Below, in pieces: positions 257 through 14,327 of a stretch of DNA of 64,000 bases (position 1 is the first letter of the stretch; every line of letters begins with the position of its first letter). This stretch comes from a virus. The notes below the pieces were generated by a model. The model was not told the origin of the DNA and searched no databases. It saw only the letters and a program-made list of their open reading frames with translations. A program made the translations under genes and the position numbers. The stretch is taken from the IMG/VR virus record IMGVR_UViG_3300042691_044682, positions 28,322-92,321 of that record; one strand, 5' to 3'.

Positions 257-359
257 CCCCTGACCAAGCGCCCCCGGCTTCGGCCGGGGGCAGTCCCCAC
301 CCGCCGGATCGCCCGGCGGGTCCGTCGAGCCCGCCGGATCGCGGGCGAAGGGACACCCG
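257..359 (+). repeat. intergenic structured element A (UUCG hairpin + hammerhead-like 3-way junction)
   Basis: gcccccggc-ttcg-gccgggggc 270-291; gtccc(293)/gggac(350) enclosing stem 299-321, ccgtcga 322-328, stem 329-346, gaa. Confidence 0.85.
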
Positions 360-521
360 ATGAACACCACCATCACCGTCCTGCAGGCCCTCGGCACCGC
401 CGGCGGCCTGCTCTTCCTGCTGAAGGTCGGCCTGGTCCTCGGAGAAGACATCTCCGAGTGGCTGCACCGCCGCCGCGCCGCCAGCCGCGCCATCATCACC
501 TACGATTCCCGGAGGCGCTGA
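360..521 (+). CDS. small membrane peptide (53 aa, not in ORF track)
   Basis: MNTTITVLQALGTAGGLLFLLKVGLVLGEDISEWLHRRR...; ATG directly after element A; TGATG coupling to next gene. Confidence 0.7.
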   Translation: MNTTITVLQALGTAGGLLFLLKVGLVLGEDISEWLHRRRAASRAIITYDSRRR

Positions 522-775
522 TGGTCCTGGGCTGGCTCGCCAGCGTCGCGGGCGCCTGCGCCCGCATGACGCTCACCCGGCCGGATCAGTGGTACCACCC
601 GAGCAACGAGCCGCCCGACACCTCGCGCGGCGTCTGGCTCCAGGGCCCCAGAGGGCTGTCCGCCTTCTGCCTGCCCGAGGACGCCTGCGCCTCGATCGTG
701 TCGGTGGTCTCGCCCACCGGGTCCATGATCCACCAGGAACGGCACATCGCCGACCTGGCCAACCAGCAGACCTGA
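521..775 (+). CDS. hypothetical protein
   Basis: TGATG overlap start (MVLGWL...), stop followed by element B. Confidence 0.6.
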   Translation: MVLGWLASVAGACARMTLTRPDQWYHPSNEPPDTSRGVWLQGPRGLSAFCLPEDACASIVSVVSPTGSMIHQERHIADLANQQT

Positions 776-873
776 CCGATGAGCCATGGCCCGCCCAGCG
801 GGCCATGCGCTAACGGAACGCCGCACCCCGCCGGCACCGTCCTTCGAGACGCGGGGTCATGGAGACATCCCCC
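776..873 (+). repeat. intergenic hairpin+pseudoknot element B
   Basis: hairpin 785-807; S1 813-823/832-840; S2 accccgc 825-831/gcggggt 851-857; core ccttcga 841-847; SD ggag 861. Confidence 0.85.
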
Positions 874-1650
874 ATGCCCAACCACGTCACCAGCAAGATC
901 ACCGTCTCCGGCCCCGCCGAGGACGTCGCCGCCTTCAAGGCGCTGATGATCCGCGAGGAGCCGACGCTCTACGGCCAGTTCCACGCTGATCCCGCGCTGC
1001 GGGGCCAGCCGACGGGCGAAACCGAGACGATCTTTGACTTCGGCCGCATCATCCCCCGCCCCGAGATTCTCGAGCGGACGGAGGAGAGCGGCGATTCCGC
1101 CCTCGGGCTCTTTGCCCTCGGCGTGGAGAATTCGGAGACCACTTTCGGCTTCCCCGCCCCGAATCCGCTCACCTATCCGTGGGTGAAGGATCTCGGCATC
1201 GAGACGCGCGAGCAGATGCTCGCATGGCTCGAGAAGGAGCGGCCCGAGGCCATCGCGGCGGCCAAGACCGCCATCGAGGCCAAGAAGCTGACGGGGCACA
1301 CAAGCTGGTACCCCTGGTCCATCGCCAACTGGGGCACGAAGTGGAACGCCTACTCGTTCCAGCTTCACGAGGAAGCGCCGGGACGGCTCGTGTACACGCA
1401 CGACACCGCCTGGTCCTTCCCCGAGCCCGTCTACGACGCGCTCTCCGAGCGCTTCCCCACCCTCCGGATCTGCATCGCGTGCTTCGACGAATGCAGCTGC
1501 TTTGCCGGCCGCGGGGCTTACAACGCCGGGCCCGACGACCAGCCCTTCGAAATCGTCGACGCGACGGACAGCATCTACGAGGAGGTCTATGGCCACCCGC
1601 CCGAGCGCTTCGACGACGAAGAGCCCGAGGCGGGGCCGGCCACCGCCTGA
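874..1650 (+). CDS. YubB/DUF1281-type ferredoxin-like fold protein
   Basis: MPNHV start, WYPWSIANWGTKWNA and DTAWSFP motifs typical of this family. Confidence 0.75.
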   Translation: MPNHVTSKITVSGPAEDVAAFKALMIREEPTLYGQFHADPALRGQPTGETETIFDFGRIIPRPEILERTEESGDSALGLFALGVENSETTFGFPAPNPLTYPWVKDLGIETREQMLAWLEKERPEAIAAAKTAIEAKKLTGHTSWYPWSIANWGTKWNAYSFQLHEEAPGRLVYTHDTAWSFPEPVYDALSERFPTLRICIACFDECSCFAGRGAYNAGPDDQPFEIVDATDSIYEEVYGHPPERFDDEEPEAGPATA

Positions 1651-1748
1651 CCTGCGCCCCCGGCTTCGGCCGGGGGCGTTCGTCCCTGTCGGCCCGTCCT
1701 GGGCCGGCCCGTCGAGCCCCGCCGGATCGCGGGGCGAAGGGACACCAC
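1651..1748 (+). repeat. intergenic structured element C (UUCG hairpin + hammerhead-like 3-way junction)
   Basis: same architecture as A: gtccc 1682/gggac 1739, stem 1688-1708, ccgtcga 1709-1715, stem 1716-1735, gaa. Confidence 0.85.
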
Positions 1749-2087
1749 ATGCCCCGCTTCCACGTCACCATCGAGCGCAAGCGCGCCGAGTACCTGACCG
1801 TGCGCGTCACGGCCGAGAACGAGGAGGAGGCCCGCAACCTCGCGCTCAAGCGCGACGGCGAGGGCCGCTACGACCTCCGCGACTGGGACGCCGGCGACGT
1901 GATCGAGGATTCGTCCGTGGTCACGCACGTCGAGCTCCCGAACTACGAGGAGCTCGCCGTGGAACTCGGCTTCGTCCTCGTCCAGAGCGCTGACAAGCAC
2001 GGCGACGAGGAGCACCTCTGGGAAAGCCCCAACGGGGTGGACCTCTATCGCACCGCCCGCGAGGCGGTGGAGAGCGCGAGCGCATGA
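1749..2087 (+). CDS. hypothetical protein (DpnD/PcfM-like VxVxAExEEEA motif)
   Basis: MPRFHVTIERKRAEYLTVRVTAENEEEA; ATG after element C. Confidence 0.7.
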   Translation: MPRFHVTIERKRAEYLTVRVTAENEEEARNLALKRDGEGRYDLRDWDAGDVIEDSSVVTHVELPNYEELAVELGFVLVQSADKHGDEEHLWESPNGVDLYRTAREAVESASA

Positions 2088-2317
2088 TCGGCTGGCACCC
2101 CTGCGAATGGATGCCCGCCATCGGGCGCTCCGCCAAGCGCCGCGCCATCGCCTGGTCCTGCCAGACCGATGCGCGGCTGCGGGTGCGCCACTGCGGCCAT
2201 CCGACCGCGCTCCGCCCCTACTACGTCGAGATCGACGGGACGTCGCAGCTCCACGAGCTCGGCACCTTCCGCCTTCTCGACGAGGCCCAGGCCGCCGCCA
2301 TGCGCGCGGTCGGCTGA
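2084..2317 (+). CDS. hypothetical protein
   Basis: ATGA overlap with previous gene; followed by terminator. Confidence 0.65.
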   Translation: MIGWHPCEWMPAIGRSAKRRAIAWSCQTDARLRVRHCGHPTALRPYYVEIDGTSQLHELGTFRLLDEAQAAAMRAVG

Positions 2318-2323
2318 CCGAAC

Positions 2324-2357
2324 CGCCCCGCTGGCTCCGGCCGGCGGGGCGTTTCTC
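2324..2357 (+). terminator. probable intrinsic terminator
   Basis: cgccccgctgg...ccggcggggcg followed by tttct. Confidence 0.6.
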
Positions 2358-2432
2358 GTGGCACCTTCATCGATTGCCCCGGCGCCTGACCCTCCGGGGT
2401 TCAGGAATTGTGCATCGGCCGAACCCGCCGCC

Positions 2433-2462
2433 TTGTTTATTCGTGATCCGTAACCATATAAG
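2433..2462 (+). promoter_or_regulatory. sigma70-like promoter for candidate ncRNA
   Basis: TTGTTT-N18-TATAAG in a locally AT-rich patch. Confidence 0.5.
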
Positions 2463-2469
2463 CTTCACG

Positions 2470-3100
2470 AGGGCAGCCCAGCCGGGCTGGTACCCTGCTC
2501 CCCCATTCAGCAACGTCAGTTTCGGGGGTGAGCAAAGGCCCGCCGCTTCTGCGCTGCGCCGTTTGGGCCGGCGCGCCGGCCGGGCAGTCCTCGAGGATCC
2601 ATCCTTCATTCCCGCGTCCCCTCCTCGTGAGGGGCCAGACCGCGAAGACCAGCCGCGCCGGGAGGCGCGGGGGAACGGGATCCGGCACGCTGCCCGCACG
2701 GCAGCGCTGCCGCCGAGCCTGCCGCGAGTGATGCCGCGGCGGGAGGAATCGGCCCACGCATCCGACCATTCTCCCCGCTGCTTCAGAGCCATGGGGTCTG
2801 GCCTGCTACGATATTCCCGAACGCCGCCCTTCGAGACGGCGCCCCCGAGGCAAGCTCCGCCGATCGGCGCTGACCAGCGCCACCGGGCGGAAAGCGCCGG
2901 CACGGTATGCCGGCCGGCTCGCCCGACGGGGTATTGGACCTGGAGCCCCGGCCGCAAGGCCGGCCCCCTGCTGAAGCGCATGGGGGGCAGTAGGACCAAT
3001 GGAACGCAAAGGTACCGCCGAACGACGCGCCTCCAGCGCGGCGGCCACCATGTGCAGAGAGAAACCCCCCACCGGCACGGTCCGGTGGGGGGTTTCGTCG
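2470..3100 (+). ncRNA. candidate large structured ncRNA (~630 nt), family unknown
   Basis: no credible ORF; promoter upstream, terminator downstream; many hairpins with GCAA/GGGA/UUCG loops and long-range complementarities. Confidence 0.6.
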
Positions 3101-3103
3101 TTT
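3061..3103. terminator. terminator hairpin between convergent units
   Basis: gaaaccccccaccgg-cacggt-ccggtggggggtttc perfect 15-bp stem. Confidence 0.75.
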
Positions 3104-3894
3104 CAGGGCGTCATCGCCGGCATGAGCTGCAGCTGGTCGGCGAGCAGGTCGAGCGCCTTGGGCACGCCCGCGAAGCGCGCCCGCCACTCGGCCTGGCGCC
3201 GCGGCAGGTCGGCCTGCACCCGCGCGCAGTGCGCCCGCCAGGCGCGCAGGTCGCTCTCGTGCGCCTCGGCCAGCCGCGCCAGGCGCCGCCCATACTCCTC
3301 CGCGCTCTCGTCGTGCCGCTGCGGCGGCGGCTCGCGCTCCGGCGGCGCCGGCGGCAGGCCCGGATAGGGCGCCACCTCAAGCTCGAACAGCACCAAGTCC
3401 AGCAACACGCCCAGCACCGGCCAGCTCAGCCGCCCGGCCAGGAGCGTGATGACCCGCCGTGCGCGCGTCACCCGCGGCGGCTCGAGCGCCTCATGGTTCC
3501 GGCCCGGCGCGCCGACGTCGTAGCGCCCCGACCAGCGCCGCTGCACGCCCGCCCGGGTGGCGTACTCGCGCAGGTCCGCCGCGGCCTGCAGGCGCCGGCG
3601 CAGCACGTCGCCCGTGTCGCCGAGCGCGCCACCAATCAGCAGCACCTCGATCGGACCGGGCAGCGCGGCATAGGCGGGGCCGAGGAGGGCGTAGATCTTG
3701 TCGCGGGCCAGCTGCAGGCCGCCGCGCTGGCGTTGCCGCTCCGGGGTGCCGCGATCGGCGCCCCATTTCTGCAGGATCAGGCCGGTGTCACGGTCCCGGT
3801 AGACCTCGACCTGCTCGCGCCGCCGGGTCGCCTCATGGCGAGTTCCCTTGGCCAGCCGCTTGAACCTGGACTTCCACCGCTTCGCCAACCGCAT
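3103..3894 (-). CDS. hypothetical protein, possibly late-gene regulator (DUF6456-like)
   Basis: good codon bias; C-terminal ALDLLADQL helix and position at end of replication block. Confidence 0.55.
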   Translation of the reverse strand: MRLAKRWKSRFKRLAKGTRHEATRRREQVEVYRDRDTGLILQKWGADRGTPERQRQRGGLQLARDKIYALLGPAYAALPGPIEVLLIGGALGDTGDVLRRRLQAAADLREYATRAGVQRRWSGRYDVGAPGRNHEALEPPRVTRARRVITLLAGRLSWPVLGVLLDLVLFELEVAPYPGLPPAPPEREPPPQRHDESAEEYGRRLARLAEAHESDLRAWRAHCARVQADLPRRQAEWRARFAGVPKALDLLADQLQLMPAMTP

Positions 3895-3911
3895 CGCGCC
3901 TCCGCACAGGC

Positions 3912-3930
3912 GCCACACTTCTATGTGGTC
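3912..3930. promoter_or_regulatory. CACA-N6-TGTG operator
   Basis: gccaca-cttcta-tgtggtc, intergenic. Confidence 0.6.
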
Positions 3931-3949
3931 CGGGCGAGGCTAGGCAAGG

Positions 3950-4681
3950 CTATACGTCGTCGGCCAGCAGCACCATGAGCGCGACCCGCCCGCGGATCTG
4001 GAAACTGTCGCCATCCACGCGCCAGACCTCGCCGCGATAGGGCCACGGCAGCTCGACCCGAACGCGCTGCATCGTGCCCGAATTGCGGAACACGAGAACC
4101 GCGCGCGCCGCCTCCCCCTCGCCCTCCACCGCCACGCTGCGGACGGTGACCTCATGGCGCCCCTCGCGGATCCGGTGCACGAGCACCAGGTCGCCATCGC
4201 GCAGCGGGCGGGTCATCGAAGCGAAGGCCTGCACGCCGATGTAGCTGCCGGCAGGGTAGATGGCGTTCGCATGGCCATCGAGCAGAACCGCCGCCTCGTC
4301 GGCCGCAAGGCCGGGCGGCAGCGCCAGGTGCTGCGGCGGGGCGATGTCGGCCTCATAGGTCGGCCGCCACATGCCGTCGGCCGCCGCAACCCGGACCGGC
4401 ACGGTCGCCGCCTTCACGCCGGTCGCCGGCGTCTCGCCGATGATCTCGGTCACCGTGGCGCCGGGGATTGCGCGCGCCAGCCGCTCGAGCGTCTCCTGGC
4501 TCAGCGTCTTCGAGTGGCCGTTCATGAAGTTGTAGATGGCATTGGCCGAGCGCAGGCCGGCCGCGCGCGCCCAGTCCGCCGCACGGAGGTCGTGCCGCTG
4601 CATGAAGGCCTCGAGGGCGCCGCGGCGGCGTCGGTACAGCCGATCGCCGCCCCGAGGCCCGTCTAATGGCTGCGTCATCAT
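3950..4681 (-). CDS. CI-like XRE HTH repressor with degenerate S24-like C-terminal domain
   Basis: AADWARAAGLRSANAIYNFMNG HTH; C-terminal beta domain (DGDLVLVHR...IRGRV); divergent from Cro-like gene. Confidence 0.75.
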   Translation of the reverse strand: MMTQPLDGPRGGDRLYRRRRGALEAFMQRHDLRAADWARAAGLRSANAIYNFMNGHSKTLSQETLERLARAIPGATVTEIIGETPATGVKAATVPVRVAAADGMWRPTYEADIAPPQHLALPPGLAADEAAVLLDGHANAIYPAGSYIGVQAFASMTRPLRDGDLVLVHRIREGRHEVTVRSVAVEGEGEAARAVLVFRNSGTMQRVRVELPWPYRGEVWRVDGDSFQIRGRVALMVLLADDV

Positions 4682-4690
4682 AGGACTAGC

Positions 4691-4709
4691 ATCACAGAGT
4701 GCTGTGGTT
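4691..4709. promoter_or_regulatory. CACA-N6-TGTG operator between CI-like and Cro-like genes
   Basis: atcaca-gagtgc-tgtggtt in a 41-bp divergent gap. Confidence 0.7.
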
Positions 4710-4722
4710 CATATTCCGCCCC

Positions 4723-4977
4723 ATGAATGGCACCCGCATCGAGGCGCTGCTCGACGAGCTCGAGAAGGCAGCTCGCAAGAAGCGCCTGACGAAGAAGCAG
4801 CTCGCCGAGATGGTCGGCCTGCATCAGAACACCCTCCGGAACTTCCGTGGCTACCGCGCTCGGGAGAAGCCCGACGACTGTCGCTGGACCCCATCGGTCG
4901 AGACCATCGCCCGACTGGAGCCCGTCCTGCTGCCACGCCGGGCACGCGACTCCGCGAAACCTCAGGTTTTCACATAA
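4723..4977 (+). CDS. Cro-like HTH protein
   Basis: LTKKQLAEMVGLHQNTLRNF...WTPSVETIARLE. Confidence 0.75.
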   Translation: MNGTRIEALLDELEKAARKKRLTKKQLAEMVGLHQNTLRNFRGYRAREKPDDCRWTPSVETIARLEPVLLPRRARDSAKPQVFT

Positions 4978-4981
4978 CCCG

Positions 4982-5431
4982 GTGTTCGCGTCCTCTGTCA
5001 AGCGAAAGCGCCCCGCCTCACCGGAGCACAAGCTCCAGGCGTCGCTGGTGGCCTGGCATGAACAGTGCGTGGCGCGGAACAGCTGCGAGCTCATCGCCAT
5101 CCCGAATGGCGGCTTCCGCCGCAAGTCCGTGGCCGGGAAGATGAAGGCCGAGGGTCAGCGCAAGGGCGCCACCGACCTCGTCCTCGCCCTGCCGGAAGGC
5201 CGCAGCCTGTGGATCGAGGTGAAGCTCGACGACACCCCCACCACCAAGCGCACGGACCTCTCGGCCGAGCAGCGCGCGTTCCGGACGAAGATCCTATCCC
5301 TGGGGCATTCTCACCGGGTGGTGCGCTCGATCGAGCAGTACCGCGCCGTGATCGAGGAGTTCGGCGTCCCGCACCTCGAGCGCGCGCCGCTCAGGCGAGC
5401 GGGCGAGCCTCGGCGGTCAGCTCCCGAATGA
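4982..5431 (+). CDS. VRR-NUC domain nuclease
   Basis: EHKLQ...IPNGG...KMKAEG...GATDL...WIEVK...SAEQ motif order. Confidence 0.85.
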   Translation: MFASSVKRKRPASPEHKLQASLVAWHEQCVARNSCELIAIPNGGFRRKSVAGKMKAEGQRKGATDLVLALPEGRSLWIEVKLDDTPTTKRTDLSAEQRAFRTKILSLGHSHRVVRSIEQYRAVIEEFGVPHLERAPLRRAGEPRRSAPE

Positions 5432-5738
5432 CGCGGCTGGCCTGGCGGAAGCTCTTCGCCGGCAGCTGACGCAGCTTCTCGACGAGCTCCCGGATCGCCT
5501 GGTCGCGCTCATGGGCCGGCGCCGCTGGCTCCGCGCCCGTCAGCCCCAGCGCCTCGTCGGCCGCCAGCCCCATCGCCTGGCACGCCCGCGCGAGCTGCTC
5601 GGCCGTGATGCGGTCCTCGTCGCGCTCGAACTTCGACCACTGCACGCCGCTCACGCCGATGACGGCGCCCGCCGCCGTCTGCGTCCACCCCAGCTCGACG
5701 CGCCGCCGGCGCAGCGCCGCCGCTATGCGCTCCCGCAT
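5391..5738 (-). CDS. XRE-family HTH regulator
   Basis: LRRRRVELGWTQTAAGAVIGVSGVQWSKFERDEDRI. Confidence 0.8.
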   Translation of the reverse strand: MRERIAAALRRRRVELGWTQTAAGAVIGVSGVQWSKFERDEDRITAEQLARACQAMGLAADEALGLTGAEPAAPAHERDQAIRELVEKLRQLPAKSFRQASRVIRELTAEARPLA

Positions 5739-5765
5739 GATCCCCCGTCCCACCGATCCGCCATC

Positions 5766-5784
5766 ATCACACGAAGCTGTGCTT
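5766..5784. promoter_or_regulatory. CACA-N6-TGTG operator
   Basis: atcaca-cgaagc-tgtgctt upstream of XRE gene. Confidence 0.65.
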
Positions 5785-6338
5785 CATGCCACTGCCTCGG
5801 CCAGCCGCGCCTCGATCTGCGCCACCCGCAGCCGCGCGGCCCCGGCCGCCGGCCCGCCGCTCGCCGCCAGCTTGCGGTAGTACTCGAGCAGCGCGCCGTC
5901 GCTGAGGTGGCCGGACGGTCGCGCCACCTTCGGCCCGGCCGCCTCCCGCTGGCGGGCCGGCGCGATGACCTCCTCCGCGTAGCGCGCCCGGAAGGCGGCC
6001 GCGATCGCGGCGCGCGCCTCCGGCGCCAGGGCATCGACGGGGTCGCGCGGCGGCGCCAGCAGGGGCGCGCCGCCGGCGTTCGCGATGGCGCGGCTGTGCG
6101 CCTGCGCGCGCCAGTCCTCGGCCACCAGGGCGCTGATTTCCTCGACCGAGGGCCAGAAGGCGAAGCGGCGGCAGGCCTCGCGCTGGAGCCGCTCGCTCAG
6201 CGCGGCCGTGGGGACGCTGAGCGCGAAGGCCAGCGCCCCGGCCCGGGCCTTGGCGTCGGCGGCGGTCGGCGGGTTCCGCACGGCGGCGGCGAGCGGGCGC
6301 AGGAAGCGCAGCCAGTCCTCGATGGCGGCGGGGGTCAT
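5784..6338 (-). CDS. replication-associated hypothetical protein (helicase-loader position)
   Basis: coupled to initiator by ATGA; FWPSVEEI motif. Confidence 0.6.
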   Translation of the reverse strand: MTPAAIEDWLRFLRPLAAAVRNPPTAADAKARAGALAFALSVPTAALSERLQREACRRFAFWPSVEEISALVAEDWRAQAHSRAIANAGGAPLLAPPRDPVDALAPEARAAIAAAFRARYAEEVIAPARQREAAGPKVARPSGHLSDGALLEYYRKLAASGGPAAGAARLRVAQIEARLAEAVA

Positions 6339-7465: not shown

Positions 7466-7603
7466 ACGCCCCTCCGCACTTCCTGTGATCCTGAGCGATG
7501 CCGCAGCGCGCCCATTCGGCACGCGTGCGCATCAACCACACGGCAGGCTAATCCGCGATATGGTTCGGACGCAAGGCGAGTCTTTTCTCCTATCGTTCTG
7601 TGG

Positions 7604-7631
7604 TTGTCGGATTGATTTCCTTCCGTAGCAT
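7604..7631 (+). promoter_or_regulatory. putative early promoter
   Basis: TTGTCG-N16-TAGCAT in divergent gap; adjacent operator half-site tgtggtt. Confidence 0.4.
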
Positions 7632-7717
7632 CCCCATATCCACCACATCACCCGTCGCTCGCGCCGGACGCACCGCGGATCCGCCGCGGCGCCGCCGCCG
7701 CCAGCCGAGGCACCATC

Positions 7718-8260
7718 ATGCCGAAAGCGACCATCACGATCGGCGGCCCCATGAATTCCGAGGGGTTCGCCATGCTTGCCGCCGCCATGGCCGACGACGG
7801 CCTGCCGACGCGCGATCCCGACGACGACGCGGGCCCGGGCCAGCAGCCCACCCTCACCGCCGCCGGCACCGCCGACCCGGCCTTCTACCGCCAGGCGCTC
7901 ATCGACGCCCAGGCCGCCAACGAGCCCATCTCGCTCGGCACCTGGGACAACGACGACGACGTCACCGACGCCGGCAAGTACACCCTGCGCTGCGCCGACC
8001 AGCTCGCCCTGGTCGTGCGCACCTACCAGCCCGGCGGCTTCGATCCCGACTATGGCGAAGACCGCGACGCCTACATCGCCATCTCAGGACGCCTCGCCCC
8101 CGTGCGCGGCTCCGCCTGGATCGGCAGCGACGGCGAGCCGATGCTCCCCATCGCGCGCGCCGACATCGCGTCCTCGGACGCATTCAGGGCCCGCTACGAC
8201 GACGCCAGGAAAGCCTGGGCCGTCATCGACGCCAAGGTCCCGCCGATCGACATCCTCTGA
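7718..8260 (+). CDS. hypothetical early protein
   Basis: gagg SD, strong GC3 bias. Confidence 0.75.
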   Translation: MPKATITIGGPMNSEGFAMLAAAMADDGLPTRDPDDDAGPGQQPTLTAAGTADPAFYRQALIDAQAANEPISLGTWDNDDDVTDAGKYTLRCADQLALVVRTYQPGGFDPDYGEDRDAYIAISGRLAPVRGSAWIGSDGEPMLPIARADIASSDAFRARYDDARKAWAVIDAKVPPIDIL

Positions 8261-8343
8261 CCGCAAGCACGGCGCCCCTCCCGGGGCGCCGGCGCTTGCC
8301 GCGGCACTCCCGCCGCGGCCCGTTGAGCAAGAGGAACCACCCC
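8261..8343 (+). repeat. intergenic element D (degenerate S2)
   Basis: hairpin 8263-8299; S1 gccgcggc 8298/8312; core ccgttga 8320-8326. Confidence 0.7.
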
Positions 8344-8901
8344 ATGCCCGACTGCTTCGTGTGCCCGCTTGGCGGGAACGCGAAAGCCATGTCCTTCGCC
8401 GAGTTCTTCCGGCGCTTCCCCCACCGCCTCGTCCCCGAGGCATGGGAGGCGCTCGCAATCGCCGCCATGACCGACCAGATCATCGAGTTCCGCGACGATC
8501 GGCACGACCCCATGAAGGCCGTGTCGACCAACTTCGTCACCACGAACCCGACGGTGCCCGACGGCGCGCCGTACTGGTCGATATCCGCCAGGACGCTGAA
8601 GCTCGCCACCGCGCGCACGCTGCTTCACCAGCCGCAAGCGCGCGTCGTGACGCCGACGAAGCTCCTCACCGACGATCGTGGTCCGAAGACCACCTATCGC
8701 CTCGGCCTGCGTGCCTCGGTGACCGTGGACTCAGACGTCCTCGTCGACGCGCATTCGCCCGACGACGCGATCGCGCTCTTCGAAGCGTCCCCCGATCGCT
8801 ACCACGGCGAAGCCATGGACGTGCTCGAGAACTCCTGGGACTGGCACGAGCTGACGCCCATGCAATGGATCGTCGTCTCCGCCATCCCCACGGACGACTG
8901 A
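8344..8901 (+). CDS. hypothetical early protein
   Basis: MPDCFVCP start after element D. Confidence 0.75.
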   Translation: MPDCFVCPLGGNAKAMSFAEFFRRFPHRLVPEAWEALAIAAMTDQIIEFRDDRHDPMKAVSTNFVTTNPTVPDGAPYWSISARTLKLATARTLLHQPQARVVTPTKLLTDDRGPKTTYRLGLRASVTVDSDVLVDAHSPDDAIALFEASPDRYHGEAMDVLENSWDWHELTPMQWIVVSAIPTDD

Positions 8902-8999
8902 CATGCCGCATGCCGCCGGCGCCCCGTGCGCCGGCGTGCAAGCCGGCCCGCCCGCTGCCGGGCCTGCCCGTCGTGGCACTAGCAGCGCAGGAGACAGCC
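8902..8999 (+). repeat. intergenic element E
   Basis: S1 8942-8950/8959-8967; S2 cgctgc 8953/gcagcg 8982; core ccgtcgt 8968; SD aggag. Confidence 0.85.
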
Positions 9000-9644
9000 A
9001 TGAGCTTCCCCTTGCCGAGCGTGCGCTCCGTCTCCGGAGTGGCGCTCAAGGCGGCACTCGATGTGATCGCGACCGTGGCCCGCTGGCGGGACGCCCTGCC
9101 GAACGACCCCGACACGATCCGCGACGCCGCCATCAAGGCTCTGGCCGCGCTCGAGCTCATCCGCGAAGCCCCCACCGCCACCGCGGCGCGGGGCTTCAAG
9201 ACCGACGCCCTTTCCGAAGACGAGATCCTCGCCCTCTACGCCGCCCGCAACGCCTGGTTTCGAGCCGGCTGGCGCGCAATCGACCGGGCGATGGCCGTCT
9301 ACGGCCCCGACTGGGGGAAGGTGCCCGGCAACCGTGTCTATGCCACGGTGCCGCGCAACCTGCGCTTCCGCTACAACCGGCACACCCGCAAGGTGACCCT
9401 CGATGCCGCCCAGCAGATCATCGCCGCCCCGGTCTTCTGGGTCGACGGCGACCTGCCGGCCGAGGTGACGATCGGCGGAGTGGTGCCGTCCCCCTGGCAA
9501 CCCGACCTCGCCAGGCTCTCCCGCGAGGGCGAGATCTGGTCGAGCGGGAAGTGGGCGAAGACCTTCGAGATGAGGGTCGACTACGAGCTCTGGCGCGCGA
9601 AGTACCCGGACCAGTACCGGAACACTTCGGCCACCAGGTCATAG
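9000..9644 (+). CDS. hypothetical early protein
   Basis: MSFPLPS start after element E. Confidence 0.75.
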   Translation: MSFPLPSVRSVSGVALKAALDVIATVARWRDALPNDPDTIRDAAIKALAALELIREAPTATAARGFKTDALSEDEILALYAARNAWFRAGWRAIDRAMAVYGPDWGKVPGNRVYATVPRNLRFRYNRHTRKVTLDAAQQIIAAPVFWVDGDLPAEVTIGGVVPSPWQPDLARLSREGEIWSSGKWAKTFEMRVDYELWRAKYPDQYRNTSATRS

Positions 9645-9741
9645 CCGATGGGCCATGCCACCCCTCGCGGGAGGCATGCGCCAACGGACCGCCGCGCCCC
9701 CCCGGCACCGTCCTCCGAGGCGGGGGGCCATGGAGACCACC
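9645..9741 (+). repeat. intergenic element F (close relative of B)
   Basis: S1 9684-9694/9703-9711; S2 gcccccc 9696/ggggggc 9722; core cctccga 9712. Confidence 0.85.
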
Positions 9742-10479
9742 ATGACCGACTTCACCCTCGCCGGCTCCGATGTCGGCGTGCGGCGCGTCGACTTCGCCGG
9801 GCTCGTCGCTGAGCTCGGCGACGACGCCGCGCTGGACGCCATCGCCGCCACCGAAAATGGCGGCGTGCATCGCGCGCCCGGCACGCCGGTTCGCCTGGTC
9901 CGCCGCTTCAAGAGCGGCGACGAGGCGCTCGGCTTCGACTACTTCGCCCGCAAGGCCGGCGTCTCCCCCGAGGAGCGCGCCACGCCGGAGGGCGAGCCCG
10001 CCGACGACGACAAAAACGACGAGACCAACCGCAACGCTCCCCTCGAAGGGGAGGCGCTCGCACCCTCGTATCAGCACCTCTACACGACGTTCCAGCAGGA
10101 CCCTGAGTCGGTCCAGCTGAAGCGCGTGACCGTGCGCTTCTCCCTAACGGTGCCCGTCAGCCTGGCTGTGCGGGCGCCCGACGAGAAGGCCGCGCGCGAG
10201 GTGGTTCGCCGCTACATCACCGGCGAGGAATTCGACACCGACACGGCCATCCTGATGAGCCCGGTGGACATCCTCGCCGCCGCGGCGCGCCGCCTGGAGA
10301 ATGCCGAGAACCTGGCCGAGGCCGAATGGTCGGCCTCCACCTTGCGCGTCGAAGACGTGACCAAGGAGGAGGTCGAGAAGCTGCTGCGGCGCCTGCTCGC
10401 GGAGGAACTCCGCGCCTACCAGGAGACCGTCGTCAGCAACGTCGACGCACTCGCCGCCATCTTCGAGCGCGGTGGTTGA
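9742..10479 (+). CDS. hypothetical acidic early protein
   Basis: MTDFTL start after element F. Confidence 0.75.
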   Translation: MTDFTLAGSDVGVRRVDFAGLVAELGDDAALDAIAATENGGVHRAPGTPVRLVRRFKSGDEALGFDYFARKAGVSPEERATPEGEPADDDKNDETNRNAPLEGEALAPSYQHLYTTFQQDPESVQLKRVTVRFSLTVPVSLAVRAPDEKAAREVVRRYITGEEFDTDTAILMSPVDILAAAARRLENAENLAEAEWSASTLRVEDVTKEEVEKLLRRLLAEELRAYQETVVSNVDALAAIFERGG

Positions 10480-10569
10480 TCGCATGCCCGCCCGGCCCCG
10501 CGTCGGGCGGGACATGCGATGCCTCGCCCCCGGGCATCGCCCGTCGCGAATGGGGGCCGGAGACACCAT
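10480..10569 (+). repeat. intergenic element G
   Basis: S1 gcgatgcct 10516/gggcatcgc 10532; S2 gccccc 10526/gggggc 10552; core ccgtcgc 10541. Confidence 0.9.
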
Positions 10570-11187
10570 ATGTCCTCCATCCAGATGCCGCCCCCCAATC
10601 GCGGGGACCGGCGCCGCCTCGAGCGCAAGCAGCGCAAGAGGAACCGGAAGTATCCCATCTTCGGAATGATGGCCCACGGGACCTCCCGTGACCACGAAGA
10701 GCTCGCCCGCACCCCCGAACAGTCCGCCGATCACCACATGAAGATGATGAAGGACCTGTTCGAGAAGGCTGGCGCCAACTCGACGCCGCACCTGATCACA
10801 TTCGGCCCGTCGGGCTCGATGTTCATCCTCGGCGACCCCGAGGAACACGACAACGCGACCTCGGTCGCGCCTTCGCAAGCGAAGGTGGTCGCCTGGACGG
10901 CGGCCTGGGCCAAGCGCCGCAACGCCGACAGGTACGTCCTCGGCGTCGGTGCCTGGGTCATGCCGAACGCCCTGGCGAACGACCGGCAGCCGCGCCGTTG
11001 CATCCTCGTCGTCGTGGACGATCGCGAAGCCGGCCTAACCATCAAGGCCAGCGAGGTGGTGCACGATCCGAAGACGGACTCCATCGTCGGGTTCAACGAC
11101 CACGCCCCGATCGACCTGGGGATCCAGAAGGTCCTCTTCCGCAACCTGCTGCCGGCCAAGTCGGTCGGCGCAGAACTCGCCGCATGA
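10570..11187 (+). CDS. hypothetical early protein (N-terminal NRxxRR motif)
   Basis: MSSIQ start after element G. Confidence 0.75.
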   Translation: MSSIQMPPPNRGDRRRLERKQRKRNRKYPIFGMMAHGTSRDHEELARTPEQSADHHMKMMKDLFEKAGANSTPHLITFGPSGSMFILGDPEEHDNATSVAPSQAKVVAWTAAWAKRRNADRYVLGVGAWVMPNALANDRQPRRCILVVVDDREAGLTIKASEVVHDPKTDSIVGFNDHAPIDLGIQKVLFRNLLPAKSVGAELAA

Positions 11188-11280
11188 GAGTCCGGCGCCC
11201 CTTCCCGGGGCGCCGGCGCTAGCGGCGTCTCCCCCCGGGCGCCGCCCTTCGATCACGGGGGATCATGGAGAACCACTACC
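11188..11280 (+). repeat. intergenic element H
   Basis: S1 gcggcgtc 11222/ggcgccgc 11238; S2 tccccc 11230/ggggga 11257; core ccttcga 11246. Confidence 0.85.
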
Positions 11281-11580
11281 ATGACGACCAACGCTGCGCG
11301 CCGCGACCCGGCGCGCATCGAGCAGGCCATCGAGTGCCTGCGCCACGCCCGCCGCCTCCTCCGCAAGGCGGGCTGCAAGCGCGCCGCCCAGCGCGTCCGC
11401 GGCGCCCTCAAGAGCGCCGAGGGCGCGCACCGGCACGCCGAGAACCTGGTGGTCCGGCACGGCGACTACGGCCCGCCGGCGCCCGCCATCACCACCGACC
11501 TACTGCAGCCGCCGCCCGACCTCGCCCAGAAGTGGGAGGCCGAGGCGCGCCGGCTGACCGCGGCGGCGGGAGCCTCGTGA
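11281..11580 (+). CDS. hypothetical early protein
   Basis: ATG after element H. Confidence 0.7.
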   Translation: MTTNAARRDPARIEQAIECLRHARRLLRKAGCKRAAQRVRGALKSAEGAHRHAENLVVRHGDYGPPAPAITTDLLQPPPDLAQKWEAEARRLTAAAGAS

Positions 11581-11876
11581 TGAACACGCCGCTCCCGCCG
11601 CCGGTCGGCTTCGTCGTCTACCGCAGCGCCGCGAAAGCGGCGGTGCAGTGGAGCCGCACCGTGAAGCTCGCCGAGACCAAGACCTTCGTCGAGGCCTGCA
11701 TCAAGGCCGTCGCGCACTCCAAGAAGATCAACGGGGAGACCCGCGTCTTCCCGGTCGGTGCCGACCCCCGCAATGGCGCAAATGCCTGGGCGGTGGCCTG
11801 GTACGGCGAGACCATCCACCTGCGGCACGGCCCGTCGATGCGCGACATCATCGCGCGCGCCGCGGCCGCGACCTGA
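11580..11876 (+). CDS. hypothetical early protein
   Basis: TGATG coupling, MNTPLP. Confidence 0.7.
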   Translation: MNTPLPPPVGFVVYRSAAKAAVQWSRTVKLAETKTFVEACIKAVAHSKKINGETRVFPVGADPRNGANAWAVAWYGETIHLRHGPSMRDIIARAAAAT

Positions 11877-11969
11877 TCGTCTGCCACCGCCGGCTTCGGC
11901 CGGCGGTGCGCAAGCGATGCCACGCCCCCGGGCATTGCCCGTCGCGAACAGGGGGCCATGGAGACCACC
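11877..11969 (+). repeat. intergenic element I (close relative of G)
   Basis: UUCG hairpin; S1 gcgatgcc 11914/ggcattgc 11931; S2 gccccc 11924/gggggc 11951; core ccgtcgc 11939. Confidence 0.9.
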
Positions 11970-12296
11970 ATGACCATCTCACTCGAATTCCAGCGCGTCG
12001 TGATGCTCAGCACCGGGCACATCACGAAGGACGACAACGAGCGCCTGCACGAAATGGCGCTCGCCGACCTTGAGGACGGCGCGCAGCCGTTCCTGGTCGC
12101 GTCCTATTATGGGGGCTTCCTCATCCGAGTGCTCGGGGAGCCCATCTTCCCCGAAACGCTTCATCAGCGCGAGAATGCCGGCCTGTCCGATGCCTTCCTT
12201 GCCCTGATGAAGTTGGCGGCCGAGCACAAGGCGGACTGGCTTCGCCTCGACACGGACGGCCTCACCTCCGATGAGTTGCCCACTTTCGAGTGGTGA
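11970..12296 (+). CDS. DUF5983-like protein
   Basis: LSTGHIT...YGGFLI...WLRLDTDG...LPTFEW. Confidence 0.7.
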   Translation: MTISLEFQRVVMLSTGHITKDDNERLHEMALADLEDGAQPFLVASYYGGFLIRVLGEPIFPETLHQRENAGLSDAFLALMKLAAEHKADWLRLDTDGLTSDELPTFEW

Positions 12297-12400
12297 CCAA
12301 GCCGCATGCCGCCACCGGCCCGTCCGGTGGTGCGCATGCCTTCCGTCCCGCCCGCGCGGGAGGCCCGTCGTGGCCATAGCGGGCGAGGAGACCTCCCCCC
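12297..12400 (+). repeat. intergenic element J
   Basis: S1 gccttccgt 12338/gcgggaggc 12356; S2 cgcccgc 12349/gcgggcg 12379; core ccgtcgt 12365; SD aggag. Confidence 0.9.
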
Positions 12401-13792
12401 ATGGGGAAGAACCCTTTTCCTCCGGCGACGCCAGACGACCTGGCGCGCGTCGCGCCCATGCTCAGCTTCATGTCGAGCATGGAAGGCAGCTCGCGCTTCG
12501 CATCGGCGCTCCTCGAGGCCTTCAACCTCGTGAAGCTCGATGCGGAGACGCGCGCCTGGCTCGAAGGCCCCGTGGTGGTGCATTCCACCTCGACCTGGCC
12601 GATCGAGCACGGCGATACCCCCCGCTGGATGCTGGACCGGATCCCGGCCGAGAGGCTGGAGATCGTCATGGGCCAGCATCCGGGGATGATCGTCGGCCCG
12701 TGCGAGATCGCAGCGGTGATGCAAAGCGCCATCCATACGGCGCCCCTCACCATGCAAGGCAATGGCCTGTATCTCTGGGCCACGGCCCGCGCGCTGCAGC
12801 ATCGCACGCACGAAGACGGCACCCCGAATCCGCTGTCGGTGGAGGAAGCCGAGCGCATGCTCGGATCCCGGCTCCCACAGGACGCCGAGATCCTCAGCGC
12901 GGCCGGCATGTACCACCAGGACTACCGCTCCCTCTGCGCCGAGATCCGGCGCAAGGTGGCGGCAGGCGGGGGCAAGCGCATCGCGCCTGGTCTCAGGCCG
13001 CGGCCTGCTCCCCTGACGGCGCCCATCGCGGCGCCGCCCAAGACCGTCCCGGTCCCTTCCGAGGTCGCGGCCGTCCTGGCCACGTCGACCTGCGAGGGGA
13101 ACGTCCTCAAGCTCCCGCAGCAGCTCGATCGCCCGACCTACGAGGCGACCGATGCGGTGCTGAAGGCGCTGGGAGGGAAGTGGAATCGCCACAAGGGCGG
13201 GCACGTCTTCGCCGAAGACCCCGCCCCGCTGATCGCCAATGCCCTTGGCGACGGCGCGGTCATCGACCGCAAGAAGACCTTCGAGATCTTCGAGACGCCG
13301 CCCGAGGTGGCCGCGCGCATGGTGGGGATGCTCCCCGCCAGCGAGCGGCTCCTCGAGCCATCGGCCGGTACGGGCCGACTGGTGAAGGCAGCACTCCTCG
13401 CGGGCACGGCGCAGTCCATCCACGCCATCGAGGTTGACCCGCGCAACGTGGGCGAGCTGCGAGCGATCGCAGATCCCCGCGTCGCGGTGATCCATGGCGA
13501 CTTCCTTTCCATCGCCGGAGACACCACATATGACGCCTGCGCGATGAACCCGCCGTTCCGAAACGGCGCCGACATTGCGCATGTGCGTCGTGCCTACGAG
13601 CTGCTTCGGCCAGGCGGCACCCTCGTCGCCATCATGAGCGAGGGCGCGTTCCACCAGCAGCAGCGCCGGGCCAAGGAGTTCCGCTCCTGGCTCCGCGACC
13701 TCAAGACCGAGACGGAGAAACTGCCCGCCGGGACCTTCCGCCAGGAAGGCACCGACGTGGTTACGCGGCTCATCCAGATCCGGAAGCCGTGA
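12401..13792 (+). CDS. unknown N-terminal domain fused to N6-adenine-type methyltransferase
   Basis: FETPPEVA, LEPSAGTG (motif I), MNPPF (motif IV). Confidence 0.85.
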   Translation: MGKNPFPPATPDDLARVAPMLSFMSSMEGSSRFASALLEAFNLVKLDAETRAWLEGPVVVHSTSTWPIEHGDTPRWMLDRIPAERLEIVMGQHPGMIVGPCEIAAVMQSAIHTAPLTMQGNGLYLWATARALQHRTHEDGTPNPLSVEEAERMLGSRLPQDAEILSAAGMYHQDYRSLCAEIRRKVAAGGGKRIAPGLRPRPAPLTAPIAAPPKTVPVPSEVAAVLATSTCEGNVLKLPQQLDRPTYEATDAVLKALGGKWNRHKGGHVFAEDPAPLIANALGDGAVIDRKKTFEIFETPPEVAARMVGMLPASERLLEPSAGTGRLVKAALLAGTAQSIHAIEVDPRNVGELRAIADPRVAVIHGDFLSIAGDTTYDACAMNPPFRNGADIAHVRRAYELLRPGGTLVAIMSEGAFHQQQRRAKEFRSWLRDLKTETEKLPAGTFRQEGTDVVTRLIQIRKP

Positions 13793-13885
13793 TCGCATGC
13801 CGCCGCCTGGGCAACCGGGCGGCGCGCAAGCGTCTCAGCCGCCCCCCATGGGACGCCCGTCGTGAACGGGGGGAAGGAGATACCC
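13793..13885 (+). repeat. intergenic element K
   Basis: GCAA hairpin; S1 gcgtctca 13830/tgggacgc 13849; S2 cccccc 13842/gggggg 13868; core ccgtcgt 13857. Confidence 0.9.
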
Positions 13886-14014
13886 ATGATCGCTCAGCTG
13901 CTCGAACTCGTCGGGAAATTCATGCTGGCGATGGCGAACACGGTCGCCGCCTTGATGGTGGTGGTCGATATGATTCGCCGTCGCAGCGCCCCGGCGCAGG
14001 TCGGGAGCTACTGA
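13886..14014 (+). CDS. small hydrophobic peptide (42 aa, not in ORF track)
   Basis: aaggag SD; MIAQLLELVGKFMLAMANTVAALMVVVDMIRRRSAPAQVGSY; flanked by elements K and L. Confidence 0.7.
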   Translation: MIAQLLELVGKFMLAMANTVAALMVVVDMIRRRSAPAQVGSY

Positions 14015-14112
14015 CCGCGTGCCGCCGGCCTCCGCTCAGGGGGCCGGCGTGCAAGCCGGTCCGCGCCCCAGGGACCGGCCCTTCGAGGAAATGGGGCGAA
14101 GGAAGAGAGAGC
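14015..14112 (+). repeat. intergenic element L
   Basis: S1 gccggtcc 14055/ggaccggc 14072; S2 cgcccca 14064/tggggcg 14092; core ccttcga 14080. Confidence 0.9.
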
Positions 14113-14268: not shown

Positions 14269-14291
14269 CCACCGCACTGGCCCATCTGGGC

Positions 14292-14327
14292 GACGCCGCT
14301 TCGGGAGACCGGGGCGGCGTTTTTTCT
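14292..14327 (+). terminator. intrinsic terminator ending the early array
   Basis: gacgccgcttcgg-gaga-ccggggcggcgtt followed by T tract. Confidence 0.85.

Follow-up and report, generated by a model that had tools for sequence, protein, structure and literature searches.

The last 64 kb of a 92-kb IMG/VR virus record (IMGVR_UViG_3300042691_044682) were analysed as one stretch, referred to here as the window. The record belongs to an uncultured, temperate phage. Between nearly all small accessory genes of its two long operons, here called arrays, lies a copy of one repeated RNA element, and the same is found in two distant relatives, further IMG/VR phages whose tail tube proteins are only ~50% identical. 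Conserved non-structural proteins resemble a CI-type repressor, the small terminase subunit, a VRR-NUC nuclease and a replication protein, and the sole integrase has its match in phrog_1, a general phage integrase family. The arrays lie next to the genes for the CI-like repressor and for replication, and are plausibly early.

Architecture and distribution of the element

Each gap is built in the same order: stop codon, a GC hairpin without a U tract (hairpin A), ~6 nt, the S1 hairpin, the core CCGTCGA, an A-rich linker, S2b, Shine-Dalgarno (SD) and ATG, with S2b complementary to the S1 loop (S2 helix). The gaps of the 12 window copies are 83-104 nt long, and every core sits directly 3′ of a stem arm, 22-38 nt upstream of the ATG (Table 1). 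An earlier sequence-only reading had placed all 12 cores exactly, and the repeat is more extensive than it claimed: twelve is correct for the window, but no fewer than 24 copies occur in the genome as a whole, every one on the plus strand (12 in the window and 12 upstream of it), and the two relatives contribute ~40 more. That reading also assigned a hairpin and pseudoknot to every copy, which stands for the nine of 12 that form an H-type pseudoknot; in two (cores at 322 and 1709) a local hairpin takes the place of S2 in a three-way junction, and one (8320) lacks S2.

Table 1. Positions of the twelve elements and flanking features in the window.
Feature	Position	Strand	Helices	Core, start codon and remarks
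Element 1, type B (three-way junction)	257..359	+	hairpin A 270-291; S1 299-307 with 313-321; local hairpin 329-334 with 341-346	core 322-329 CCGTCGAG; GAA 347-349; ATG 360
Element 1, stem III	293-297 with 350-354	+		covers SD AGGGA
Element 2, type C (S1 split by internal loop)	776..873	+	hairpin A 785-807; S1 813-816 + 820-823 with 832-835 + 837-840; S2a 825-831 ACCCCGC; S2b 851-857 GCGGGGT	core 841-848 CCTTCGAG; ATG 874 (DUF1281/Api92-like gene)
Element 3, type B	1651..1748	+	hairpin A 1654-1679; stem III 1682-1687 with 1738-1743; S1 1688-1695 with 1701-1708; local hairpin 1716-1722 with 1729-1735	core 1709-1716; ATG 1749
Element 4, degenerate	8261..8343	+	hairpin A 8270-8291; S1 8298-8305 with 8312-8319; S2 none (<=3 bp)	core 8320-8327 CCGTTGAG; ATG 8344
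Element 5, type A (pseudoknot)	8902..8999	+	hairpin A 8914-8936; S1 8942-8950 with 8959-8967; S2a 8953-8958 CGCTGC; S2b 8982-8987 GCAGCG	core 8968-8975; ATG 9000
Element 6, type C	9645..9741	+	hairpin A 9654-9678; S1 9684-9687 + 9691-9694 with 9703-9706 + 9708-9711; S2a 9696-9702 GCCCCCC; S2b 9722-9728 GGGGGGC	core 9712-9719 CCTCCGAG; ATG 9742
Element 7, type A	10480..10569	+	hairpin A 10487-10511; S1 10516-10524 with 10532-10540; S2a 10526-10531 GCCCCC; S2b 10552-10557 GGGGGC	core 10541-10548; ATG 10570
Element 8, type A	11188..11280	+	hairpin A 11192-11216; S1 11222-11230 with 11237-11245; S2a 11230-11235 TCCCCC; S2b 11257-11262 GGGGGA	core 11246-11253 CCTTCGAT; ATG 11281
Element 9, type A	11877..11969	+	hairpin A 11885-11908 (cUUCGg loop); S1 11914-11921 with 11931-11938; S2a 11924-11929; S2b 11951-11956	core 11939-11946; ATG 11970 (DUF5983 gene)
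Element 10, type A	12297..12400	+	hairpin A 12310-12332; S1 12338-12346 with 12356-12364; S2a 12349-12355 CGCCCGC; S2b 12379-12385 GCGGGCG	core 12365-12372; ATG 12401 (methyltransferase gene)
Element 11, type A	13793..13885	+	hairpin A 13801-13824; S1 13830-13837 with 13849-13856; S2a 13842-13847; S2b 13868-13873	core 13857-13864; ATG 13886
Element 12, type A	14015..14112	+	hairpin A 14023-14049; S1 14055-14062 with 14072-14079; S2a 14064-14070 CGCCCCA; S2b 14092-14098 TGGGGCG	core 14080-14087 CCTTCGAG; ATG 14113
U-tract terminator closing array 1	2324..2351	+	12-bp stem	then TTTCTCGT; overlapping prediction 2334-2350
U-tract terminator	14292..14321	+	13-bp stem	then TTTTCTGTT; 24 nt past last cassette gene (14113-14268)
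Second U-tract terminator beyond last cassette	14416-14444	+		
Divergent intergenic region	7466..7717			less GC-rich; head of array 2
First gene of array 2	7718-8260			plain leader, element absent

In the pseudoknot, S1 has 8-9 bp and S2 6-7 bp, and the loops are those of a classical H-type knot (L1 ~3 nt, L2 0-1 nt, L3 10-12 nt), the third consisting of CCGUCGA and 2-4 further residues, mostly A. Among 60 copies from the three distant phages, the stems vary while the core hardly does: its positions 1, 2 and 6 never change, and 3-5 and 7 almost never; in all, ~9-10 conserved unpaired nucleotides surround the covarying helices. Both CCGUCGA and GCCCCC/GGGGGC are constant across distant phages. 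The stretch joining hairpin A to S1 differs from phage to phage (GCGCAA in this genome, GGCCCC in relative G001). Hairpin A is perfect, with 9-13 bp. Between S2b and the SD lie 0-5 nt; the start codon follows the end of S2b at 12-14 nt in 40 of 60 copies (11-16 nt in 51). Type B, with four copies in this genome only, runs stem III, C, stem I, CCGUCGA, stem II (G-C closing pair), GAA, stem III; the minimum-free-energy fold is the closed three-way junction in three of the four (-39 to -41 kcal/mol). The SD itself is base-paired in type B, whereas it lies outside the knot in type A.

The element is kept across phages with 40-60% protein identity, although the genes it flanks are almost all different: ~4 of roughly 30 array genes are common to all three. 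Between the common anchors (a 245/205-aa gene pair and the methyltransferase) lie 2 cassettes in this genome and 5-6 in G001. The element was absent from 21 capsid relatives (37-58% identity), including one 47-kb record judged 96% complete.

Covarying helices and database searches

The sequence-only reading held that the stems differ between copies yet remain paired, and permutation controls bear this out for both helices. For S1, which has 42 distinct S1b sequences among 65 copies, 4.92 of 6 inner positions pair with the copy's own partner, against 4.32 +/- 0.065 with swapped partners (0 of 2000 permutations as good); 76% of cells are paired, compared to 65% after shuffling (0/500) and 31-47% when slid. 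The S2 helix averages 6.22 bp with its own partner and 5.57 +/- 0.076 with swapped ones (0/2000). All 13 S2 loops that depart from consensus have a matching partner, and compensatory changes occur in four of the six S2 pairs. RNAalifold recovered neither helix on either of two alignments. A covariance model gave 58 matches with E down to 1e-13, on a single strand in each phage, and nothing convincing elsewhere in the three genomes (best E ~0.1). A pattern scan returned 34 reverse and 0 forward matches, and a reversed control pattern none.

The proposal that the sequence features favour plus-strand RNA is upheld by the tetraloops (six cUUCGg and four GCAA, with no complement of either) but not by the comparison of G-T with A-C pairs, whose difference is not significant (23 v 15 in S1, 8 v 5 in the hairpin). 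The element matches no catalogued RNA family, in agreement with the earlier failure to recognise a known riboswitch or ribozyme: Rfam 15 gave 0 matches at gathering level on 64 kb, and at E up to 5-10 (14 kb plus two 131-nt pieces) only chance-level miRNA/sRNA matches. Taken together, the element is supported as an RNA pseudoknot module between cistrons, a cis-acting structure of the plus strand; this much of the sequence-only interpretation survives, with its count and its universal pseudoknot amended as above.

Transcription context and possible functions

Elements are confined to gaps between cistrons. They are absent before the first gene of array 1, of array 2 and the homologous first gene in G001, and translationally coupled gene pairs within the arrays also lack them. 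No sigma-70 site (-35/-10 hexamers 16-18 bp apart) was found in window positions 1-15000 or in any element; the single sigma-70-like site, at L028 3862-3890, lies upstream of the first gene of array 1, and the head of array 2 gave no such site in the scan. On the plus strand of window positions 1-15000, the terminator scan listed only the three sites of Table 1 (one with an overlapping prediction). U-tract terminators lie outside the element gaps, mostly at array ends, and hairpin A, long and GC-rich as first described, has no U tract at any of the 12 gaps and was rejected as an intrinsic terminator. The element-less first genes, the lone sigma-70-like site heading array 1 and the hairpins without U tracts support a single long transcript; however, array 1 may not be one transcript, because a terminator-like U-tract site (L028 11442-11469) lies inside it. 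The knot-ATG spacing, the element-less first genes and the position of the U-tract terminators argue for an intercistronic mRNA element and not a promoter or terminator.

Our preferred reading, held tentatively and at somewhat less than even confidence, is that the element is a module for mRNA processing, stability and translation insulation, which would make each gene independently stable and translatable. Host polymerase apparently starts at a promoter heading each array and produces long polycistronic mRNAs, which apparently end at the ordinary U-tract terminators. The hairpin past each stop codon would be a 3′ barrier stabilising the upstream cistron, and the knot, a compact self-contained fold ending 12-14 nt before the start codon, would keep the SD free of the surrounding 70%-GC RNA. 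After a putative cut in or near the module, the knot could serve as a structured 5′ end for the downstream cistron, resisting 5′-end-dependent decay. The outcome would be plug-in expression cassettes, in which unrelated accessory genes are expressed whatever their neighbours. The structure, its covariation, its position and its confinement to gaps between cistrons are observed, whereas cleavage, stabilisation and an effect on translation are what we infer. This reading is supported by the covarying helices, H-type loop lengths, fixed S2b-ATG distance and plus-strand tetraloops, by the gap-only location of the element, by first genes and coupled pairs without an element, by U-less hairpins against U-tract terminators at array ends, by conservation despite differing flanked genes, and by the precedent of clustered prophage hammerheads (PMC3088659). 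It is weakened by the lack of a nameable cleavage site, the unconserved hairpin A-S1 linker, the non-significant G-U versus A-C test, the RNAalifold result, the terminator-like site inside array 1 and the missing sigma-70-like site at the head of array 2. A pure structural insulator would also leave the fixed CCGUCGA and GCCCCC/GGGGGC unexplained; because the loop sequence is invariant, it is implied to be read by something, be it a tertiary contact, a protein, a nuclease or the ribosome.

An unlikely alternative is an operator for a trans-acting factor. Bound at the S1 base and CCGUCGA loop, this factor, of phage or host origin or the 30S subunit itself, would switch translation of all cassettes on or off jointly, much as T4 RegA acts on early mRNAs or as in the repZ activator pseudoknot. 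The near-fixed core amid varying stems, the set distance between knot and SD and the paired SD of type B are all consistent with it, yet no candidate RNA-binding protein was found among the conserved non-structural proteins, and with nothing more than a translational operator it would be unexplained that the first gene of each array is element-less.

More doubtful is a self-cleaving ribozyme, of a new class or derived from the hammerhead, cutting the operon transcript at every junction. Type III hammerheads have three helices around a junction, a core CUGANGA ... GAA, an A15.1-U16.1 pair and H17. The closed three-way junction of type B agrees with the hammerhead at C3, G5, G8, A9, G10.1-C11.1, G12-A14 (the GAA) and C17. 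Because its core reads CCGUCGA, however, U4 is C and A6 is U, and the 15.1-16.1 pair is G-C; changes at these positions are known to cripple activity, and searches with 131 nt gave no Rfam ribozyme model at E up to 10. Type A, the common form, differs in topology and offers no obvious cleavage site, and type B is restricted to this genome. The conserved unpaired nucleotides around covarying helices still fit a ribozyme, as does a niche shared with the clustered prophage hammerheads of Agrobacterium and Azorhizobium (PMC3088659).

Conserved, multi-copy, one-strand intergenic motifs in phages are often promoters, and a strong hairpin follows every cassette; each element might then hold a phage-specific promoter, and each cassette would form a separate transcription unit that stops at the following hairpin. 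We consider this improbable, as the sequence-only reading did for a dsDNA promoter. The elements lack -35/-10 hexamers, the spacing varies, S1 is variable yet complementary, which a DNA-reading protein cannot require, and the S2 loop-to-downstream pairing is meaningful only within a single strand. The leaders of operon-head genes are of another kind and richer in AT, no phage RNA polymerase turned up among the proteins scanned, and the hairpins lack U tracts though the phage has U-tract terminators elsewhere.

Very improbable is a DNA recombination module, in which ~55-bp units act as homology patches (boundary sequences) for cassette gain, loss or swap and the RNA fold is secondary. Modules conserved amid few common genes, differing cassette numbers between anchors and capsid relatives without the element would suit it, but homology alone needs no compensatory stems, pseudoknot, fixed start-codon distance or single orientation. 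Nor was an integron-type integrase or attC core seen: attC sites have R''/R' cores (RYYYAAC ... GTTRRRY) and go with an IntI integrase, but the gaps contain no GTTRRRY partner and the only integrase matches phrog_1. Least credible is a ligand-sensing pseudoknot riboswitch tuning all cassettes to a host metabolite: a small H-type knot with a conserved loop beside the SD recalls the preQ1, SAM-II and guanidine-III classes, but there is no Rfam riboswitch match, >20 copies precede unrelated genes and the type A SD lies outside the knot.

Comparison with known systems

Two other ribozyme folds were compared and rejected. The element shares with pistol ribozymes the pairing of a loop (that of P1 in pistol) to 3′ sequence, but where pistol has P2/P3 and a G-U cleavage site, the element has no conserved P2/P3 and continues into SD and ATG. 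HDV-like ribozymes are nested double pseudoknots with P1, P1.1, P2, P3 and P4, whereas the element has just two interleaved helices and, because S2a and S1b are 0-1 nt apart, no P3/L3. Neither gave a model match.

In the repZ leader of ColIb-P9 (IncI-alpha/IncB plasmid rep leaders), pairing of a hairpin loop with nucleotides immediately 5′ of the SD makes a knot that promotes translation. The element loop likewise pairs with bases just 5′ of the SD. The repZ activator pseudoknot, however, occurs once per replicon, under the control of an antisense RNA and a leader peptide; the element is present in >20 copies, its third loop has 7 conserved nt, and it shows no hint of such control, an unsystematic look at the 83-104-nt gaps having shown no leader ORF or antisense promoter. 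The long T7 early transcript is divided at RNase III hairpins, which remain at the 3′ ends and stabilise the mRNAs; by analogy, one long transcript with structured intercistronic sites is proposed here. T7 sites are ~20-bp irregular duplexes without a pseudoknot, unlike the shorter, perfect hairpin A and its adjoining knot.

Exonuclease-resistant RNA knots (xrRNA, coremin) and plastid intercistronic elements (PMC2230500) offer a further parallel, in that stable monocistronic units fit for translation are delimited by a compact fold, or by a factor bound between the cistrons. The element has no sequence likeness to either group, those being eukaryotic-viral or plastid, and exonuclease resistance would be a putative property here.

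Within phages, the SAS/ESAS repeats of Cluster K mycobacteriophages, whose function was still not known in 2025, occur in 11 to 19 copies per genome; SAS is a fixed 13-mer (GGGATAGGAGCCC) containing the SD, and ESAS consists of 17-bp inverted repeats conserved in sequence (PMC3203893; PMC12699233). Like them, the element is present in many copies in one orientation, in the non-structural half only, just 5′ of start codons and before some genes only. Identity is rejected, with the 13-mer absent from the aligned elements and stems that vary between copies, covary and form a pseudoknot. Clustered hammerhead ribozymes flank single genes in Agrobacterium and Azorhizobium prophages, one set flanking an anti-restriction gene; the proposal is that they divide long phage transcripts into mRNAs of gene length (PMC3088659). 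In common with these hammerheads, the element is a small structured RNA repeated in phage operons, between single genes or short blocks of variable identity. It matches no ribozyme family by sequence or by model, its type A topology differs and catalysis is only a candidate property.

Layout, copies and distribution of the element

The sequence-only reading had proposed that one architecture recurs in nearly every non-coupled gap of two stretches of the window, and the same order of parts was indeed found in all twelve of these gaps. A stop codon is followed by a perfect 9-13-bp GC hairpin without a U tract (hairpin A), a linker of about 6 nt, the 5′ arm S1a, a loop bearing S2a, the 3′ arm S1b, the core CC[G/T]TCG, a short linker whose last base is mostly A, S2b, a Shine-Dalgarno sequence (SD) and ATG; S1a pairs with S1b, and S2a with S2b. 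All twelve cores lie exactly where they had been placed, but the count of twelve holds for the window only: a whole-genome motif scan and a regular expression found twelve more copies upstream, from 19555 to 28229 of the 92,321-bp record, all on the plus strand. Across the three array regions, a covariance model based on 50 copies retrieved 58 elements, all in the orientation of the genes and with E-values down to 1e-13, and nothing convincing in the remainder of the three genomes that carry the element (best E about 0.1).

A pseudoknot had been claimed for all twelve window copies. Seven are plain H-type pseudoknots (type A) and two keep the knot with a split S1 (type C), but two are three-way junctions (type B) and one is without S2. 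Type B folds as a closed junction at -39 to -41 kcal/mol and is represented by four copies, all in this genome. In this genome hairpin A is flanked by GCATGCC on its 5′ side and GCGCAAGC on its 3′ side, both of which lengthen its stem. The gaps of the two other phages, G001 and G002, have a conserved GAAGC(C) motif immediately 5′ of hairpin A, placed either across the stop codon or after it (TGAAGCC...). In G002, an interval of 87 nt devoid of any ORF separates two complete elements, and after the first of them a stretch poorer in GC stands in place of SD and ATG; the pair could be a former cassette that has lost its gene, or an internal promoter.

The record, of which the window spans bases 28322-92321, has about 70% GC; among its products are a tape measure protein, a lambda-J-like central tail fibre, an integrase, an XRE-type HTH protein and a replication protein that combines a DUF1376 domain and an O-like one. 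Together with a CI-like repressor, these identify an uncultured temperate siphovirus, its temperate nature being indicated by the integrase, the XRE-type protein and the CI-like 217-aa protein common to all three phages. The latter has no Pfam or PHROG match; on alignment, the motifs of the two unnamed proteins common to all three phages suggest a CI-type repressor in one case and a small terminase subunit in the other. By tail tube protein, the closest isolates are Limnohabitans, Curvibacter and Caulobacter phages (34-40% identity), and the element is absent from the three such isolates Limnohabitans DC31, Curvibacter P26059A and Caulobacter DMCA, as it is from 21 capsid relatives of 37-58% identity, one of which is a 47-kb record with an estimated completeness of 96%. 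In IMG/VR, a scan for the exact pattern yielded G001 (100.7 kb, with terminal repeats, judged complete) and G002 (82.9 kb), each with many copies; their tail tube proteins are 49% identical to that of this phage, and other common proteins 25-69%. A scan of genome contigs gave four isolated matches, and a locus search with a single protein gave no match. Of the two sets of matches listed from metagenome and looser viral scans, only one gave covariance-model hits, all of them weak (≤28 bits). The family is known from three genomes, all metagenomic, and the sequence is present in DNA metagenome runs only (fungus, freshwater), with no RNA run among the runs listed.

Covariation of the two helices and coding strand

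Covariation in S1, as previously claimed, is borne out by 42 different S1b sequences in 65 copies, whose arms pair better with their own partners than with swapped ones (4.92 of six inner pairs versus 4.32 ± 0.065; 0 of 2000 permutations). In the model alignment 76% of S1 cells are paired, against 65% after shuffling and 31-47% with the partner column slid, and six of the eight S1 pairs show changes on both sides. S2 is less variable, being mostly GCCCCC with GGGGGC, but the claim of covariation holds here too, with a matching partner in all 13 copies that have a deviant loop (for example CGCTGC/GCAGCG, ACCCCGC/GCGGGGT, GCCCTCC/GGAGGGC, GCCTCCC/GGGAGGC, CGCCCGC/GCGGGCG and CGCCCCA/TGGGGCG, and in G001 GCCTCCG/CGGAGGC and GTCCCG/CGGGAC). 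The S2 helix averages 6.22 bp with its own partner versus 5.57 ± 0.076 bp with swapped partners (0/2000), and a second model, fitted to S2, shows compensatory changes in four of six pairs. With S1 of 8-9 bp, L1 of about 3 nt, S2 of 6-7 bp, L2 of 0-1 nt and L3 of 10-12 nt, the element has the dimensions of a classical H-type pseudoknot, and the structure model is already well constrained by about 65 natural variants.

RNAalifold recovered neither helix from the MAFFT alignment or from the model alignment, likely because of 1-nt register shifts, the mid-S1 C-C or C-A mismatch of G001 and G002, and the fact that the program draws no pseudoknots. A heuristic stem finder was dropped as over-permissive in 70%-GC DNA. 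In this genome the S1 stems are mostly perfect; in most of those from G001 and G002, pair four or five is a C-C or C-A mismatch (C-C in 28 of 65 stems), and this conserved mismatch hints at a possible recognition feature.

As to strand, G-T pairs had been held to favour a plus-strand RNA, but the excess of G-U over A-C is not significant. The argument from tetraloops fared better, with cUUCGg and GCAA present and their complements absent. The plus-strand reading further rests on the confinement of the elements to one strand, on the SD directly after the knot, and on interleaved inverted repeats, which can pair jointly only within a single strand.

Two arrays of small genes

The elements are confined to two arrays of small plus-strand genes that flank the repressor and replication module, an arrangement also seen in G001 and G002. 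No element precedes the first gene of either array, nor does any lie between gene pairs with overlapping stop and start codons. The head of array 1 has the sole sigma-70-like site found, and array 2 starts behind a less GC-rich divergent region. Hairpins with U tracts end the arrays, and no U tract follows the inter-gene hairpins. A terminator-like site with a U tract inside array 1 suggests a possible division of this array into two units; no hairpin A is present in the gap that leads to the following element (genome 26844-26907).

The first gene of array 1 belongs to AAA_33, a P-loop kinase family that includes polynucleotide-kinase-like enzymes. It is the sole array-1 gene without an element upstream, and it heads an array in both this phage and G001. 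A putative 5′-kinase heading an operon whose RNA is possibly cut would be a suggestive connection. The flanked genes are mostly orphans; of the array genes, only about four have homologues in G001 and G002. The recognisable flanked genes encode a DUF1281/Api92-like protein, DUF5983 and a methyltransferase, families of the anti-restriction and establishment regions of mobile elements, and the accessory genes probably include anti-defence genes. The methyltransferase, which matches phage and plasmid PHROG proteins of 1200-3900 aa, is among the few cassette genes common with G001 (40% identity).

Coordinates of the features discussed (copies are named by core start; L028 is a stretch of this genome, L065 a stretch of G002)
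Feature	Position	Strand	Remarks
Array 1	genome 18.9-30.7 kb	+	
Sigma-70-like site	L028 3862-3890		TTGATA-17-CATATT; head of array 1
AAA_33 kinase-like gene	L028 3950-4504 (genome 18949-19503)		first of array 1; homologue heads G001 array (G001 56884-57393)
AT-rich terminator-like hairpin with U tract	L028 11442-11469 (genome 26441-26468)	+	inside array 1
Type B copies	window 322, 1709		local hairpin after core, then GAA; SD AGGGA paired with GUCCC 5′ of S1
Type C copies	window 841, 9712		S1 interrupted by internal loop, knot kept
Degenerate copy	window 8320		S1 and core, S2 absent
U-tract hairpins	window 2324-2351, 14292-14321, 14416-14444		end the arrays
217-aa protein	window 3950-4603	-	N-terminal HTH-like segment; C-terminal likeness to LexA/CI self-cleaving domain
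115-aa XRE-type HTH protein	window 5391-5738	-	near 217-aa protein
Array 2	window 7.7-14.3 kb	+	starts at 7718
Methyltransferase	window 12401-13792	+	behind element 10; matches C-terminal parts of very large PHROG proteins
Integrase	window 23387-24661		
Paired elements	L065 9154-9296 (G002 about 47154-47296)	-	

Candidate roles and known systems

That the element acts as RNA and not as a double-stranded DNA promoter is upheld by the covariation of its variable stems. Elements occur only downstream of another cistron, and in 40 of 60 copies the end of the knot lies 12-14 nt from the start codon; they are therefore mRNA devices of intercistronic gaps, linked to the initiation of translation. In the simplest model, favoured here and inferred in all its functional steps, hairpin A would shield the upstream cistron at its 3′ side, and the knot would keep the ribosome-binding site clear of the GC-rich RNA around it; after a cut, the knot would be a folded 5′ end resisting 5′-end-dependent decay. 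Such a device would be superfluous for the first cistron of a primary transcript, whose end is a triphosphate and which has no cistron before it. The model does not explain the invariant CCGUCGA, which implies a specific reader, be it a tertiary contact, a protein, a nuclease or catalysis, and operator and ribozyme rivals were kept for this reason. As to a trans-acting factor, about 40 proteins were compared with Pfam and PHROGs, and neither an RNA-binding protein nor an RNase turned up among them.

On the ribozyme reading, the element would be a new or hammerhead-derived class of small self-cleaving RNA whose core for catalysis or recognition, the invariant CCGUCGA loop, would be held by the H-type pseudoknot; used more than 20 times per genome, it would cut accessory-gene operons into single-gene messages with pre-folded 5′ ends. 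Type B is laid out like a type III hammerhead, but its core is CCGUCGA rather than CUGANGA, its 15.1-16.1 pair is G-C, and none of the hammerhead models matches it. The niche is the same as that of the clustered hammerheads that flank single genes of changing identity in Agrobacterium, Azorhizobium and Clostridium prophages (PMC3088659); Perreault et al. saw the polycistronic RNA cut in vitro, and one of their clusters flanks ardA (PMC3088659). On balance we regard self-cleavage as rather improbable.

Covarying structure in stems of variable sequence cannot be a DNA site read by a protein, so that promoter, DNA-operator and attC readings fall. An ECF-type promoter (GGAAC ... CGTC) was rejected on inspection, as its spacing fits the four type C copies only and its -35 is unconserved in type A. 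Integron attC sites, N4-type DNA hairpin promoters, type III toxin-antitoxin repeats and a type II hammerhead with hairpin A as stem III each lack a defining feature when read against the sequences. The likeness of GCCCGUC and CCAUGGAG to a strand of the 16S rRNA decoding site is presumably a coincidence.

Should the element serve for processing or insulation, it would show how phages keep unrelated accessory genes expressible wherever they are inserted, and synthetic biology would gain from it a natural, compact insulator to use in GC-rich hosts; if it is self-cleaving, it would be a new ribozyme class. Structured RNAs are known to punctuate phage operons, among them hammerhead and twister ribozymes and RNase III sites, and the element resembles ribozyme and RNase III punctuation in role and the repZ-type activator pseudoknot in geometry. 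Its distribution is like that of SAS/ESAS, repeats in Cluster K mycobacteriophages (PMC3203893) that remained uncharacterised as of 2025 (PMC12699233). The sequence-only reading had recognised no known RNA class, and a search of Rfam matched no family; the sequence family is new and a member of none in Rfam. What is uncatalogued is a covarying fixed-loop pseudoknot that occurs more than 20 times per genome and is conserved among phages with almost no flanked genes in common.
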